This document shows positions 6,143 through 62,776 of a DNA stretch of 64,000 nt, piece by piece (positions within the stretch are counted from its first letter, which is position 1; each line of letters begins with the position of its first letter). Where the stretch lies: the NCBI GenBank assembly GCA_900542735.1, contig UQOS01000001.1:50865-114864 (forward strand), given 5' to 3'. Under the pieces are notes generated by a model that was given only the letters and a program-made list of their open reading frames with translations, was not told the origin of the DNA and ran no database searches. This DNA is from an uncultured Mycoplasmatota bacterium (GTDB lineage: Bacteria > Bacillota_I > Bacilli_A > RF39 > UBA660). Made by a program: the position numbers and the translations under genes.

Positions 6143-6562
6143 ATGAAAAAGAAATATTGGTTATTAGCACTTATTATACCTATCTTATTAGTTACAGGGT
6201 GTAGTGAAGAATCTACTACTAAGTCATTATCTTGTACAATGAAAGATGGTATAGAAGGAACTAGTACATATAGTAAAATGGACATTACATTTAGAGAAAA
6301 TGAAGCAGAAAGAATTTCTTTAAATATATCTATTGATTATAATAATGAATATAAAGACTATGTTGATACTTTTAAAGAAACACTAGAAACACAGAAGACT
6401 AATTTAGAAAAACTTGGTTATGATGTTAAAATTACTTCTAATAATTCGTCTATTAACTTGTTAGCAGTTGGTACTAATAAAACACTTGATGAAAGTGAAT
6501 ATAAAGGTACTTATGATGCTACAAAGAAATCTCTTGAAGATAGTGGTTATACTTGTAAATAA
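6143..6562 (+). CDS. Lipoprotein of unknown function
   Basis: MKKKYWLLALIIPILLVTGCSEE is a type II signal peptide with lipobox LVTGC. RBS AAAGGTGAG upstream of the ATG at 6143. Confidence 0.6.
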   Translation: MKKKYWLLALIIPILLVTGCSEESTTKSLSCTMKDGIEGTSTYSKMDITFRENEAERISLNISIDYNNEYKDYVDTFKETLETQKTNLEKLGYDVKITSNNSSINLLAVGTNKTLDESEYKGTYDATKKSLEDSGYTCK

Positions 6563-6597
6563 AAGAAGATATTCACAAAACTGTGGATATCTTCTTT
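6563..6597. terminator. Bidirectional rho-independent terminator between the convergent lipoprotein (+) and HIT (-) genes
   Basis: AAAAGAAGATAT-(14 nt loop)-ATATCTTCTTTT is a perfect 10-bp stem flanked by A/T runs on both sides. Confidence 0.6.
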
Positions 6598-6599
6598 TA

Positions 6600-6989
6600 T
6601 TATTTCATAATTTCTTGATAAATTTCGTCAGTATCTTTTAGACTTTCTTGGTTAAAATTAATATTCCAATTATCATCTTCATATCTTGGAATTAAATGAA
6701 CATGATAATGTTTTACTTCTTGACCTAATTCATTATTTTGAACAATTGTTAATCCTTTTATATTTAACTTTTCTTTTAATAAATCATATATCTTTTTTTC
6801 TACTTCTAAAATGTGAGTAGTAAGAATACTATCAACTTCTTTTACTGTTACAATATGTTTTTTAGGAATAATTAGACAATGTCCGTTTGTGTTAGGATTA
6901 ATATCTAAAAATACCTTTACTAACTCATCTTCATAAATTGTTTTACTAGGAATACTTCCTTCTATAATCTTACAAAATAAACAATCCAT
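6600..6989 (-). CDS. HIT (histidine triad) family nucleotide hydrolase
   Basis: HVHLIP histidine-triad motif (HYHVHLIPR), N-terminal CLFCKI motif and 129 aa length are typical of Hint/HIT proteins. Confidence 0.85.
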   Translation of the reverse strand: MDCLFCKIIEGSIPSKTIYEDELVKVFLDINPNTNGHCLIIPKKHIVTVKEVDSILTTHILEVEKKIYDLLKEKLNIKGLTIVQNNELGQEVKHYHVHLIPRYEDDNWNINFNQESLKDTDEIYQEIMK

Positions 6990-15640: not shown

Positions 15641-15694
15641 AGAATCCTAAATAAAAATGACTTGAATATATGTTCAAGTCATTTTTAAATATCT

Positions 15695-21029: not shown

Positions 21030-21227
21030 GAAAATGGGTTATGCCCTTGTGGCATATGAGAAAAATATAAAAAGATATTTTTTGATAACTATTGTAGATG
21101 GAAAAGAGGTTAGTCTTATTTTTAAACTAACCTCTATATTTTTTATAGTATTTATAGTATTTAAAAAATAGTACTTTACTTTTAATATTCTAATTCATAA
21201 ATATAGAATTAAATTGGCAACTAATCA

Positions 21228-21275
21228 TTTGACAATTACACTGAAAAATGATATAATTTCAGTGTAATTGTCAAA
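21228..21275 (+). promoter_or_regulatory. Consensus sigma-A promoter (TTGACA-17-TATAAT) embedded in a perfect 19-bp inverted repeat; putative AbiEi autoregulatory operator
   Basis: TTTGACAATTACACTGAAA-aatgatataa-TTTCAGTGTAATTGTCAAA. The -35 is at 21229-21234 and the -10 at 21252-21257. The ATG of the AbiEi-like gene is at 21294. Confidence 0.7.
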
Positions 21276-21293
21276 GAAAGAAAAGGGATTAAT

Positions 21294-22181
21294 ATGAAAA
21301 AAGAGGAGAAAATCAATTATAAAATTGAAAGTGATGTTCTTAAAAATTATGTAGAAGCTATTAATTCAATAAAGGAACCCATGAGACAAATTAAGGATCA
21401 ACTTCATCAACTAACAATGCCAATGCAAGAACTAGATAAATCATTTAATGAATCTATGAAGCCAATCATTGAAGCAAGTAAAGCCGCTTCTAGGCCATTT
21501 AAATCAATTCAAAAAGAACTAAAAAGCATTAATACTATGTCTAATGTAATTAAGGAACTATCGATTAAATATCCAAACAACCAGTCAAAAATATTTATAG
21601 ATACTATAAAGCAAATAATGAATACCAATAATGGAATGCTTTCTACAAGAATGATAGAACCACTAAATATAAGCAGACAATATCTCTCAATTATGGAAAA
21701 TAATAATGAAATTGAAAAAGTTTCAAGAGGTATATATCTTTCACCAAGTGCTTTTGAGGATAGTTATTTTTCCTTCCAACAAAAATATAAAAAGGCTATT
21801 TTCTCACATATGAATGCCCTATATTTTTACGGTATGACTGAGGAATTTCCATATAACTATACAGTAACTGTTCCACAAAACTATCATGTTGATACAGTAA
21901 ATGAAAAATGTAATGTATTTTATGTTTCAGATGATATATATGAAATAGGTGTCGTTGAAGTTGAAACTCCAAGTGGAAATAAAGTTAGAGCTTATGACAA
22001 AGAAAGATGTATTTGCGATATCATAAGATCAAAAGGTAGAATGGATCCTGAACAAGTAAAAAAATCTATTAAACAATATATTCAAAGTAAAGATAAAAAT
22101 GTAGCAAAGCTATATGATTATGCAAAGAGAATGGGAATAAGTGAAAAAGTAATGGAAATGGTAGGCATATATTATGAGTAA
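21294..22181 (+). CDS. abiEi: AbiEi-family antitoxin/transcriptional regulator (type IV TA/abortive infection), copy 1, with an N-terminal extension of about 90 aa
   Basis: The C-terminal 200 aa align convincingly with the 62150..62776 protein (for example EIGVVEVETPSGNKVRAYDKERCICDIIRSKGRMDPEQVKKSIKQY versus ELGLIQIDTPMGNKVKAYDMERCICDIIRSKNRMDSEHVKHSIREY). It lies upstream of, and overlaps, an AbiEii-type nucleotidyltransferase gene. Confidence 0.75.
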   Translation: MKKEEKINYKIESDVLKNYVEAINSIKEPMRQIKDQLHQLTMPMQELDKSFNESMKPIIEASKAASRPFKSIQKELKSINTMSNVIKELSIKYPNNQSKIFIDTIKQIMNTNNGMLSTRMIEPLNISRQYLSIMENNNEIEKVSRGIYLSPSAFEDSYFSFQQKYKKAIFSHMNALYFYGMTEEFPYNYTVTVPQNYHVDTVNEKCNVFYVSDDIYEIGVVEVETPSGNKVRAYDKERCICDIIRSKGRMDPEQVKKSIKQYIQSKDKNVAKLYDYAKRMGISEKVMEMVGIYYE

Positions 22182-23016: not shown

Positions 23017-23304
23017 GAGGTTTGAATGAGTATATAAGAATAACATATTGTACAACAAAAATAATTTCATATTTATCAGATTAAACACAATCGATAAGAA
23101 TGGGGCTTTTATAAATTTTAAAATAGAACAAGTTGAAAAAAAGATATTTTTTTTAGCACTTGAGTTGTATTAGTTTTGGTCGACAAATACATTAAACTTT
23201 TGTGCTTTTTTTCTAAATTAAAATGTGATGCTTTTTAATTATTTGATAATTCAAGACTTTTCGTTAGAAATTTGGTACAATTATCGCATAAGGTAGTGAT
23301 TGGG

Positions 23305-24093
23305 ATGAAAATTCTAAATAAAAAGTATTTTGAATCAATGAAAAAATATAGAGATGATAATAATTTACAGAATGAATTAACTGATGATGATTGTATTTGC
23401 TATGCAAATATGTTTTCAGTTTATTTTGAAATTACAGATAAAAAATATTCGTTTGATGAAATGTTTCAAACTTATGATTTTATAACAGATGTAATCGATG
23501 GATTAAGGCCTGATATAATGATTGAATTAAATGATAAGTATAGGGATATTTATAGATTATTAAGAAGATATTCTATAACAAAAAATTTAGATAAAGAAAC
23601 AAGAAAAAAATTAGCATTTTTAATATATCAAGCTAAATGCATAATTATTATGGATGAAGAAACTATGGAACCTACTTGGAATATGGGATTATTTGAAAAA
23701 GGAACAAATAATTTTCTTGAAGAATATGAATATGAATTAAAAGAATATCCAGAAACATACGAAATAAAAGAAACATTGTCTGACATTACGAGTGATGATT
23801 TTGGATTAACTGCTAATAATCCAATTGAATTAATATCTGTAGGAGCACAATATCAGTATTTAAATATATTATTAACTGATGATGGAAAAGATATTTTGTA
23901 TGAAAGAGTGGGAACAGTTACACATAGCGATGGTGAAACTATAATTGATGTATATAATATTTATAGCAAAAAAAAATTAGGAAAGAAAAAAATTGCTACT
24001 TTATATATTTCTGGATATGGATATGAAAATACTGTAATTGCTCCAAAAGGCTTTAGATTTATGACAGATGAAGAATTTAAAAATAGACATTAA
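23305..24093 (+). CDS. Hypothetical cytoplasmic protein, acidic, no recognisable domain; downstream of AbiE pair 1
   Basis: ORF of 262 aa from ATG 23305. No TM segment and no known motif. Distinct, even lower-GC composition. Confidence 0.45.
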   Translation: MKILNKKYFESMKKYRDDNNLQNELTDDDCICYANMFSVYFEITDKKYSFDEMFQTYDFITDVIDGLRPDIMIELNDKYRDIYRLLRRYSITKNLDKETRKKLAFLIYQAKCIIIMDEETMEPTWNMGLFEKGTNNFLEEYEYELKEYPETYEIKETLSDITSDDFGLTANNPIELISVGAQYQYLNILLTDDGKDILYERVGTVTHSDGETIIDVYNIYSKKKLGKKKIATLYISGYGYENTVIAPKGFRFMTDEEFKNRH

Positions 24094-52986: not shown

Positions 52987-53015
52987 TTGAAATAACCGAT
53001 TGAATATATTATAAT
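52987..53015 (+). promoter_or_regulatory. Near-consensus sigma-A promoter (TTGAAA-17-TATAAT) driving the GC-rich noncoding region
   Basis: -35 TTGAAA at 52987-52992, a 17-nt spacer, and -10 TATAAT at 53010-53015. The predicted transcription start is about 53022, at the edge of the GC-rich island. Confidence 0.5.
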
Positions 53016-53021
53016 GAATAA

Positions 53022-53600
53022 GAAGTGGTGCATTATTCTAGTCACAATCCGTTGTTACGAAGACGAGCCTAAAAATTCGTTAATAGCACATCTATGAAGC
53101 GTCTGGTGCTTGCTTGATACGCCCAGTATTGGGTGGGTGCTGGACGGAAAGAAACCATGGGCGCCTATAATGGCATATAGGGAACGACCCATCTTTTCGC
53201 GGAGACCTAAACTTGTGGATAACTATCTACGACTTAGGATTAAACCTATCATGTGGAGAAATCTATGGATAGTGTAGCTTGGCTTGAGTGATAATTGGGG
53301 ATAGAGACAACTACTAAAAAGGTGTACATCTTTTTAGTAGTATTGCTACTTGAAACAGTTACTTGCAAAAAAGCATAGTAATAACATCGAATGTGCAAGA
53401 GGAAAACTCCTAGAGTGTACGATTAATGTAGGATTGCAGTGTATACTAAGTGGTAATCAAGTCATAGAATTGGTGACAATCTATTGCTTCCTTTCAAGGG
53501 GAACCGCTTGCTGGTAACGGTAAGTAGGAAGTAGGGAAATCCAACTTGACCTAAGGTACAAAGTTTACTATATTAGTTACCATTTCTTATTTTTTTGTTT
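53022..53600 (+). ncRNA. Large structured noncoding RNA candidate (about 580 nt, GC-rich, ORF-free), possibly OLE-like
   Basis: No ORF of 60 aa or more on either strand. Local GC is far above background (for example CGCCCAGTATTGGGTGGGTGCTGGACGGAAAGAAACCATGGGCGCC is about 60% GC versus about 27% in flanks). Multiple perfect helices: CGCCCA/TGGGCG, CTACTAAAAAG-gtgtacat-CTTTTTAGTAG, CTTCCT...AGGAAG. A consensus promoter lies just upstream and a 4-TM 21-kDa membrane protein gene immediately downstream. Confidence 0.45.
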
Positions 53601-53612
53601 TTTGGAGTTATT

Positions 53613-54203
53613 ATGAAATTAAAAAAATATAAAGAAAAATATTCAAAAAAAGCTAGTAAAAAACCAGTGAAAAATAAAAAAAGTGTAGACTATAAATGGA
53701 TACTAACAGTAACTATTTTTGCCTTTTTCATTTCTTTAATTTTTTCACTTTTTTCAGAAACTATTATTCCAAGTGCTACTAGTATAGTGGCTATTATTAT
53801 AATTTTATTATTTATTGGAATTGGTATCTTATTTGATATGATAGGAATTAGTGTTACGGTTGCTGATTTAAAAACCTTTAACTCTATGGCAACCAAGCAA
53901 GTTCGTGGTGCTAGAATAGCCGTAAAACTAATCAAAAATAGTGAAAAAGCATCTAGTTTTTGTAATGATGTAATTGGTGATATATGTGGAATTATTAGTG
54001 GTTCTGCTGGAGTTGCTTTATCTACCATTTTAGCAAACTCTTTTCATCTAAATCTATTAATGACTAGTTTACTTATAACTGCTACTATTGCAGCATTAAC
54101 CATTGGAGGAAAAGCCTTAGGAAAAACAGCTGCCATTAATAAAAGTACCAAGATACTATTTGAATTTTCTAAATTTTTAGCTTGTTTCTATAAAAAATAC
54201 TAA
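53613..54203 (+). CDS. Small 4-TM membrane protein (about 21 kDa) with a basic N-terminus; OapA-like candidate
   Basis: MKLKKYKEKYSKKASKKPVKNKK followed by four hydrophobic helices over 197 aa. RBS GGAG upstream of the ATG at 53613. Sits directly after the GC-rich RNA candidate. Confidence 0.55.
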   Translation: MKLKKYKEKYSKKASKKPVKNKKSVDYKWILTVTIFAFFISLIFSLFSETIIPSATSIVAIIIILLFIGIGILFDMIGISVTVADLKTFNSMATKQVRGARIAVKLIKNSEKASSFCNDVIGDICGIISGSAGVALSTILANSFHLNLLMTSLLITATIAALTIGGKALGKTAAINKSTKILFEFSKFLACFYKKY

Positions 54204-61920: not shown

Positions 61921-62090
61921 TTTATTTTAAAGGATTTGAAGCCCATTAAACTATTTTAGGTACTAAGCTAGGTACGTAAATTTAAAAAAATGCATAAAAA
62001 TTGATGATTTTAGTGCATTGGAAATAAATTTCCAAAAGTAGGTAAAAATACTAAGTTCTGGAAAAATATTTCCAATTCTTTTTAATATCA

Positions 62091-62137
62091 TTTGACAAAA
62101 CTAATGATAAATGTTATAATTTCATTAGATTTGTCAA
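62091..62137 (+). promoter_or_regulatory. Consensus sigma-A promoter (TTGACA-17-TATAAT) embedded in a 16-17-bp imperfect inverted repeat; putative AbiEi operator, copy 2
   Basis: TTTGACAAAACTAATGA-taaatgttataat-TCATTAGATTTGTCAA. The -35 is at 62092-62097 and the -10 at 62115-62120. Same architecture as at 21228-21275. Confidence 0.65.
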
Positions 62138-62149
62138 GGAGGAATATTT

Positions 62150-62776
62150 ATGGAAAGGATGACAATTAAGGAATTTAAAGATCAAAGTAATATTGAAATT
62201 ATAGAATCTATTATGAAAATGAATAATGGATATGTTACTTCAAAAGAACTATCTAATCTTGGAATTCATAGAATGTATCTTAATATTATGAAAGAAAAAG
62301 GTATGATAGAAAAAGTTGGTAATGGTATTTATATTGATTCAAGTAAAATAGAAGATAGCTATTTTGTTTTTGGATTAGAACTTCCTAATATTATATATTC
62401 ACATATGACAGCACTTTATTTTCATGGACTTTCTATTAAAGCTCCAAATGATAAATACGATATAACTGTCCCAAATAATTATTTTAATTATAAAATTAAA
62501 AATCATAATGTCTTTTATGTTGATAAAGATATTTATGAACTGGGACTAATTCAAATTGATACTCCAATGGGTAATAAAGTAAAAGCATATGATATGGAAA
62601 GATGTATCTGTGATATTATTAGATCTAAAAATAGAATGGATTCAGAGCATGTTAAACATAGTATTAGAGAATATGTTAAAAGAAAAGATAAAGATCTAGT
62701 TAAACTATCAAAATATGCTGAAAAACTTGGCGTTAAAAAAGAAGTGATGGATTATGTGGAGGTATTTTATGAATAG
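62150..62776 (+). CDS. abiEi: AbiEi-family antitoxin/transcriptional regulator, copy 2
   Basis: 208 aa with an N-terminal wHTH-like region and a conserved C-terminal domain shared with 21294..22181. RBS AGGAGG upstream. The stop overlaps the start of the AbiEii gene. Confidence 0.8.
   Translation: MERMTIKEFKDQSNIEIIESIMKMNNGYVTSKELSNLGIHRMYLNIMKEKGMIEKVGNGIYIDSSKIEDSYFVFGLELPNIIYSHMTALYFHGLSIKAPNDKYDITVPNNYFNYKIKNHNVFYVDKDIYELGLIQIDTPMGNKVKAYDMERCICDIIRSKNRMDSEHVKHSIREYVKRKDKDLVKLSKYAEKLGVKKEVMDYVEVFYE

Follow-up and report, generated by a model that had tools for sequence, protein, structure and literature searches.

A consensus promoter within a perfect palindrome upstream of abiEi in an uncultured Mycoplasmatota bacterium: a probable AbiEi operator with a streptococcal precedent

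The AbiE system that offers the closest comparison is that of Streptococcus agalactiae, in which the transcription start of abiE is mapped 26 bp before the ATG and the -35 (TTGCTT) and -10 (TAAAAT) hexamers are 17 bp apart (Dy et al. 2014, PMC3985639). The operator of S. agalactiae V/R 2603 consists of two inverted repeats (IR1 and IR2, the 'AbiEi-box'), TGTTGCTTTTATACCACAAATAT-N3-AAAATTGTAGTGTAAAAGCAACA; IR1 holds the -35 hexamer, IR2 lies after +1, and similar repeats occur 5' of other abiE loci (PMC3985639). In electrophoretic mobility shift assays (EMSA), His-AbiEi formed two specific complexes, each of which needed one repeat; AbiEi repressed a PabiE-lacZ fusion, and the toxin AbiEii had no effect on EMSA patterns or repression (PMC3985639). 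The protein is monomeric, binds with positive cooperativity and bends DNA, and cross-binding with the operator of Rv2827c was not seen (Beck et al. 2020, PMC7319586). Rv2827c is the AbiEi-family antitoxin of the Rv2827c-Rv2826c (MenA3/MenT3) system of Mycobacterium tuberculosis, which represses itself via 23-bp inverted repeats over its promoter; with 17.7% identity to S. agalactiae AbiEi it is far more distant (PMC7319586). Here we analysed a palindrome that encloses the promoter of an abiEi-abiEii operon in 64,000 nt of contig UQOS01000001.1 (positions 50,865 to 114,864, forward strand; assembly GCA_900542735.1) from an uncultured Mycoplasmatota bacterium; this whole stretch is called the window below. 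The original prediction for this DNA, made from the letters alone, had treated AbiEi autorepression at promoter inverted repeats as known, and the S. agalactiae EMSA and PabiE-lacZ results bear this out (PMC3985639). Our analyses make it highly probable that the palindrome is the binding site through which AbiEi would repress its own, very strong promoter.

Promoter and palindrome at the first abiE locus

The palindrome at positions 21228-21275 (48 bp) reads TTTGACAATTACACTGAAA-aatgatataa-TTTCAGTGTAATTGTCAAA. Reading of the sequence and a repeat finder both gave a perfect 19-bp inverted repeat, with 100% complementary arms at 21228-21246 and 21257-21275 and a 10-nt spacer. The promoter scan placed TATAAT at 21252-21257, 17 nt from TTGACA, and the TG of an extended -10 at 21249-21250, which gives a 12/12 match to the consensus. 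The ATG of abiEi-1 at 21294 lies 37 positions past the final -10 base. The perfect palindrome with its N10 gap, the enclosed consensus promoter, the 17-bp spacing and the distance to the ATG are all as originally predicted.

Promoters of the sigma-70/sigmaA type typically start transcription 6-8 nt after the -10, and both abiE loci of the window show the features of this type: TTGACA and TATAAT with a 17-bp spacer and TG, on the same strand as the gene. From the usual distance between -10 and +1, we infer a start at ~21264-21266, and the resulting abiEi-1 5' untranslated region, a leader of ~29 nt, was unstructured in the RNA fold prediction. It had been claimed that the arms cover the -35 hexamer and the start region. 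The first part is observed directly, as the -35 hexamer lies in the left arm, while the start would be placed under the right arm by its predicted position.

The palindrome at 21228-21275 is the longest perfect inverted repeat of the window, and perfect inverted repeats with arms of at least 16 nt and a spacer of at most 20 nt appeared in none of 100 first-order Markov simulations. The string TTGACA-N17-TATAAT occurs exactly twice on the two strands of the window, against 0.08 expected, and both occurrences are at the abiE loci, whose promoters are the sole 12/12 consensus promoters in the 64 kb. It is worth noting that the window has a G+C content of 26%, that A+T-rich look-alikes are common in it and that a loose promoter scan gave no excess over shuffled sequence. 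On the basis of the shuffle and Markov controls, a chance origin of the palindrome was rejected. A search of the window for further AbiEi half-sites, which could mark extra AbiEi targets, found none elsewhere, each being present only at its own promoter.

The homology of the gene products to the characterised proteins is clear. Residues 104-292 of AbiEi-1 align to 5-193 of the 195-aa S. agalactiae AbiEi, which covers the winged helix-turn-helix (wHTH) and the C-terminal domain, and the AbiEi profile matched 6Y8Q_A and 9HLO_A (S. agalactiae AbiEi) over the whole length with E ~3e-44 (2.7e-44 for 6Y8Q). The Pfam AbiEi_4 scores of AbiEi-1 (24.0 bits) and AbiEi-2 (23.6 bits) are slightly below the 25-bit cut-off, and PADLOC called all four proteins of the two loci AbiEi or AbiEii. 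AbiEii-1 matched 9HLO_B, the S. agalactiae toxin, with E 1.5e-53; its motifs KGGF, RS-T67-MDID, AEKIETI and DYYDIY align with S. agalactiae residues, the GG, DxD and DxxD signatures are retained, and T67 aligns with the auto-phosphorylated T65 of S. agalactiae AbiEii. Thus the earlier naming of the downstream genes as abiEi and abiEii agrees with the Pfam AbiEii, PADLOC and structure-profile matches.

Conservation and covariation of the operator across related loci

Relatives were sought by scanning one genome per species, which gave 80 loci. Almost all of these belong to uncultured gut Bacilli or to bins that carry the label Mollicutes or Tenericutes. The 80 comprise 44 long-form loci, with 49-84% identity to AbiEi-1, and 36 short-form loci that resemble AbiEi-2. 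AbiEii is encoded directly downstream in ~70 of the 80, and 75 of the 79 loci that had usable DNA upstream carry a promoter with a score of 11 or more out of 12.5. Nearly all share one layout, in which the outer end of the left arm bears TTGACA, the gap holds TGnTATAAT and TGTCAA closes the right arm, after which come a ribosome-binding site and the ATG. The arm and promoter counts given below refer to the 72 promoters with a 17-nt spacer, which were aligned without gaps. In these 72 loci the 46-bp layout puts the -10 immediately past the dyad centre, on its 3' side, and the mirrored TGTCAA over +1; TTGACA was found in 70, TATAAT in 53 and TG in 51.

The two arms change together. Across the alignment 88.6% of arm cells are paired, compared with 32-42% after a shift of the partner by 1-3 columns, both-sided changes occur in 12 of the 19 arm pairs (129 cells), and none of 500 column shuffles reached any of the five measures. 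Symmetric variants include ATTGCAC/GTGCAAT (L026, L037), ACCACAC/GTGTGGT (L027), ...CTCAAA/TTTGAG... (L043), ACTGTACCC/GGGTACAGT (L048), AAACTAATGA/TCATTAGTTT (L051) and GAACTACTGATA (L076), and even where the -35 takes the rare form TTAACA (L041, L044), the right arm has the mirrored TGTTAA. Since the distinct symmetric variants are many, the compensation must have arisen repeatedly. The identity between loci collapses directly 5' of the left arm, whereas the element itself is kept; the element therefore forms the conserved 5' edge of the cassette. When viral contigs were scanned for exact copies of the complete operator, none was found.

The half-site sequences go along with the wHTH recognition helix of AbiEi: the helix NISRQYLSIM pairs with ...ATTACACTG half-sites (...ACACTG), and GIHRMYLNIM mostly with ...CTAATG or CTACTG. 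A simple code that links helix residues to half-site bases was sought and rejected, as phylogeny confounds it and exceptions exist.

The comparison across the 72 loci and the covariation of the arms support the part of the original prediction that spoke of autoregulated modules. The label 'type IV' that it attached to them is contested, as a 2026 preprint reclassified the S. agalactiae AbiE as type VII, with antitoxin-induced auto-phosphorylation of the toxin. Moreover, the conserved operator points to a regulated operon and does not prove an abortive-infection phenotype; a preprint found E. coli with the S. agalactiae AbiE to be unprotected against 32 coliphages.

Some loci depart from the common gene order. 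Loci L022 and L031 have abiEi and an intact promoter-operator, and tblastn found no AbiEii match within 3 kb downstream of them; only short AbiEii matches follow in L009, L018, L026, L032, L036, L053 and L070. The arms are perfect in L031 and L026 despite the absent or short AbiEii match. Loci of this kind may be orphan autoregulated antitoxins, or they may be artefacts of assembly or frameshifts.

The second locus, the gene context and the long-form extension

The same design had been claimed for the second abiE locus (Table 1). The layout is indeed repeated there, with a 12/12 promoter (TTGACA-17-TGtTATAAT; -35 at 62092-62097, TG at 62112-62113, -10 at 62115-62120) and a span from TTGACA to TGTCAA of exactly 46 bp at both loci; the perfection of the palindrome is not, the arms being complementary at 15 of 16 positions around a 14-nt gap. 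The right arm abuts the ribosome-binding site AAGGAGG (62136-62142), and the ATG is at 62150. The inner half-sites of the two co-resident modules differ (ATTACACTGAAA and AACTAATGA). Just 5' of this promoter there are two A+T-rich palindrome copies, TTGGAAATAAATTTCCAA at 62018-62035 and TGGAAAAATATTTCCA at 62059-62074, the latter followed by ATTCTTTTT. The same ~75-nt palindrome pair precedes the long-form cassette L008 (140-215), where the sequence further upstream is different, and also L060 and L067; L057 carries a deletion between the two copies. The element may be an insulating terminator or a piece of a mobile cassette.

Table 1. Positions of the promoter-operator elements and genes of the two abiE loci in the window
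Feature	Position	Strand	Description
Terminator-like hairpin AGAGGTTAGT / ACTAACCTCT	21105..21144	+	11-nt loop, then T-run; inverted repeat, RNA fold
Left operator arm (IR1) TTTGACAATTACACTGAAA	21228..21246	+	Holds the -35 hexamer and most of the promoter spacer; co-varies with the right arm in 72 loci
-35 hexamer TTGACA	21229..21234	+	Promoter scan, consensus search
Extended -10 TGaTATAAT	21249..21257	+	In the palindrome spacer; last T is base 1 of the right arm
Right operator arm (IR2) TTTCAGTGTAATTGTCAAA	21257..21275	+	~-7 to +12 around the predicted start; mirrored -35 copy (TGTCAA)
Ribosome-binding site AAGGGA	21283..21288	+	5 nt before the ATG (sequence)
abiEi-1, long form, 295 aa	21294..22181	+	AbiEi_4 wHTH aa 113-151; PADLOC AbiEi 213 bits
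abiEii-1, DUF1814 nucleotidyltransferase toxin homologue, 280 aa	22174..23016	+	Pfam AbiEii 141.6 bits; PADLOC 315 bits
Second operator-promoter	62092..62137	+	Arms 62092-62107 / 62122-62137, 15/16 complementary, 14-nt spacer
abiEi-2, short form, 208 aa	62150..62776	+	47% identity to AbiEi-1 residues 86-295; PADLOC AbiEi 203 bits
abiEii-2, 283 aa	62754..63605	+	53% identity to AbiEii-1; Pfam AbiEii 125.5 bits

The two AbiE modules of the window are paralogous. In both of them the genes are co-oriented and overlap, by 8 nt in abiEi-1/abiEii-1 and by 23 nt in abiEi-2/abiEii-2, which is the arrangement of an operon and fits translational coupling. Both are chromosomal: module 1 lies amid glycosyltransferase, O-antigen-ligase-like and rmlA genes, and module 2 follows recG. 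The terminator-like hairpin upstream of module 1 (fold -15.2 kcal/mol, z -3.5) comes after the upstream glycosyltransferase gene, 85 nt upstream of the palindrome, and would insulate the abiE promoter against read-through; the consensus terminator scan missed it because its loop is above the 8-nt limit of the scan.

AbiEi-1 carries an N-terminal extension of ~85-100 aa (residues ~1-95; 21294-21580), which is also present in more than 100 close homologues of 277-310 aa and absent from the characterised AbiEi of S. agalactiae and from AbiEi-2. It is conserved as protein and is made up of repeats of ~14 residues (for example SLKPIQEELKSIN), and homologues (P0029, P0052, P0074, P0101) differ, in frame, in how many of them they have. 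An internal start at Met82, with the first 81 codons non-coding, was rejected on the grounds of this protein-level conservation in more than 100 homologues and the in-frame length changes of repeat size. In the extension Pfam gave only sub-threshold, coiled-coil-like matches (DUF948 at no more than 25 bits, against a cut-off of 37). The structure prediction for AbiEi-1 was poor (mean predicted local distance difference test score, pLDDT, 55; predicted template modelling score, pTM, 0.41), with residues 13-92 helical at low confidence. In L045 and L046 the promoter-operator is much more distant from the AbiEi core, ~165 nt 5' of the point at which the start of AbiEi-2 aligns; in-frame ATGs are present 30-39 codons upstream, suggestive of a third N-terminal architecture of intermediate type.

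Long and short modules share a genome bin at least three times, namely in the window (21228 and 62092), in Lapin-017__bin6 (L009 and L064) and in Lapin-027__bin54 (L018 and L076), and the inner operator half-sites differ in each of the three cases, which hints at regulatory insulation. Tentatively, and with more doubt than confidence, the long-form AbiEi can be read as a distinct, undescribed variant and the long and short modules as orthogonal repressor-operator sets. The differing inner half-sites might then keep co-resident long and short modules independently regulated. As for the extension, we can only guess that it might pre-dimerise the repressor on the perfect palindrome, or might sense phage infection and release the operator. 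If the joint reading were true, these gut Bacilli would naturally hold two AbiEi repressor-operator sets that are orthogonal to each other and share an identical consensus promoter scaffold.

Several other features were recorded in the window. A 273-aa open reading frame (ORF) with a TTG start (23272-24093, +) directly follows abiEii-1; it had no Pfam, NCBIfam or PADLOC match, and tblastn found no homologue of it in the 80 related loci. It is probably outside the AbiE cassette. The next-longest perfect inverted repeats, with 15-nt arms, are at 15652-15687 (TAAAAATGACTTGAA-N6-...), and at 6558-6601 (AATAAAAGAAGATAT-N14-...); each lies between convergent genes and both are probably bidirectional terminators. 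A full-length OLE (Ornate Large Extremophilic) RNA is present at 53009-53599 (+; Rfam RF01071, 418 bits, E 2e-119), and an ORF (53595-54203) begins at its 3' end. It is unrelated to the abiE promoter and is the only Rfam match of the window, with no Rfam family at either abiE locus.

Proposed mechanism, rival explanations and comparison with known systems

In the mechanism that we propose, the 48 bp at 21228-21275 would act as the joint promoter and operator of the abiEi-abiEii operon. The RNA polymerase holoenzyme would use the near-ideal TTGACA-17-TGnTATAAT, starting at ~21264-21266 and leaving the ~29-nt leader. By homology with the S. agalactiae protein, one AbiEi would bind per half-site. 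Occupancy of IR1, which covers the -35 and the spacer, would block -35 recognition, and occupancy of IR2, from the end of the -10 through ~+12, would block open-complex formation. Two bound AbiEi would exclude the polymerase, in line with the full occlusion originally predicted, and the negative feedback would hold the expression of antitoxin and toxin at a set level. Module 2 (62092-62137) would work in the same mode with its different inner half-site.

Several points weigh against this reading. The sequence anatomy, the homology to characterised proteins, the conservation and the arm covariation are observations, whereas AbiEi binding, its stoichiometry, the start and the repression are, for this locus, inferred from sequence and analogy. 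The covariation indicates selection for symmetry and does not identify the factor that reads it. A perfect palindrome is not required, as 2-4 arm mismatches are tolerated at many loci and, of 40 long-form loci, only 15 have perfect 18-bp arms. Anchoring the alignment on the best promoter match has biased the promoter statistics for the set of loci and favours TTGACA. Shared ancestry confounds the link between helix and half-site, to which L047, L050 and L055, with an HRM helix and GGTGTA half-sites, are exceptions, and the extra N-terminal domain of AbiEi-1 could alter stoichiometry or binding mode relative to the characterised protein.

A different kind of explanation is that the palindrome acts as a nucleic-acid hairpin, that is, as an RNA terminator, an attenuator, a stability element on read-through RNA or a DNA cruciform. 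The region folds as RNA into a 19-bp stem (-24.5 kcal/mol, z -8.2), and the arm covariation would be equally expected from a conserved hairpin. However, neither strand has a T-run after the stem, the terminator scan of the region was empty, and the A+T-rich stem with its 10-nt loop is followed by GAAAGAAAAGGG, unlike an intrinsic terminator. The stem contains the -35 and the loop the -10, so that of the two arms only the right one enters a transcript from the abiE promoter. The leader of this transcript is predicted to be unstructured, the ribosome-binding site is not sequestered, and read-through RNA should be halted by the hairpin at 21105-21144. Moreover, G-T wobble is not enriched among the arm mismatches (22 of 143, about the random 2-in-12). 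With no T-run, the -10 in the loop, a single transcribed arm and no wobble enrichment, the role of an intrinsic terminator or RNA hairpin was rejected, and hairpin action of any of these kinds is very unlikely. Still less credence can be given to the inverted repeat being a mobile-cassette boundary or recombination site whose overlap with the promoter is incidental. The homology between loci does end at or just upstream of the left arm, and the long-form L008 and short-form cassettes share the 75-nt upstream element, but no recombinase or transposase gene stands beside either module, no matching repeat follows abiEii, the right arm lies inside the transcribed leader instead of at a cassette end, and the exact register relative to -35, -10 and +1 has been maintained, as it is in the characterised operator.

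The remaining alternative accepts an operator and changes its reader, which would be an AbiEi-AbiEii complex acting by conditional cooperativity, or an unlinked host or phage regulator, in place of free AbiEi. The stable AbiEi-AbiEii heterodimer of S. agalactiae described in the 2026 preprint would suit such a complex, and the operator persists where the toxin gene seems lost or truncated, so that its reader need not be tied to the toxin. However, the S. agalactiae toxin was without effect on EMSA or repression (PMC3985639), the operator accompanies abiEi in every genomic context, toxin-less loci included, and the operator type tracks the AbiEi recognition helix, which points to AbiEi itself. 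We therefore regard another reader as improbable and retain the palindrome as the putative site of autorepression by AbiEi.

The results show that the promoter-in-palindrome layout of one streptococcal AbiE system is kept in register, base by base, across ~70 AbiE cassettes of uncultured gut Bacilli. This confirms and extends a known design and raises no new question on toxin-antitoxin or abortive-infection biology; the new points, the N-terminal extension of AbiEi-1 and the differing inner half-sites of the co-resident modules, are minor. The layout yields a reliable sequence signature for the annotation of abiE promoters and operators, as well as natural pairs of half-site and recognition helix for the study of AbiEi DNA specificity. 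It would also yield two compact, probably orthogonal and tightly autoregulated consensus promoters.

In type II toxin-antitoxin operators, such as those of RelBE and MazEF, the antitoxin represses itself at palindromes that overlap the promoter, usually with toxin-dependent conditional cooperativity. The logic at the abiE loci is the same, with the product of the first gene on a palindrome over its own promoter. AbiEi differs as a two-domain wHTH protein that in S. agalactiae binds as monomers, in contrast to the dimeric antitoxins of the ribbon-helix-helix, AbrB or Phd type, and unlike the toxins of conditional cooperativity the AbiE toxin was without effect on repression (PMC3985639). The Rv2827c operator comprises two pairs of repeats, four in all, with gaps of 13 bp, and is bound with negative cooperativity (PMC7319586), whereas each window locus has a single pair.

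The likeness to S. agalactiae is much closer. Both systems have a bicistronic abiEi-abiEii operon with a single inverted pair of half-sites spanning 45-49 bp, the -35 in the outer IR1, a 17-bp spacer, a -10 that begins one base past the dyad centre on its 3' side, and IR2 over and after +1, which in the window is the predicted one. Counted from the first -35 base, S. agalactiae has its dyad centre at 23 and window locus 1 at 23.5, and the -10 starts at 24 in both; the leader is short in both, with 26 nt mapped and ~29 nt predicted, respectively. An inner ACACT motif is common to the published S. agalactiae IR2 and the long-form half-site, although the half-site sequences otherwise differ. The window promoter has the perfect consensus and an extended -10 (TTGACA/TGnTATAAT) in place of TTGCTT/TAAAAT, and its arms are perfect at 19 of 19 positions with a 10-nt gap; in S. 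agalactiae the gap is 3 bp, and a perfect core of 11 bp extends to 23 bp when 4 mismatches are included. AbiEi-1 has the additional N-terminal helical repeat domain. The S. agalactiae operator is known from experiment and the window element from its sequence; as the dyad-centre and -10 positions match to within 1 bp, the latter can be regarded as the same device in a homologous system, and its layout is not new in kind, because the homologue provides a direct experimental precedent.

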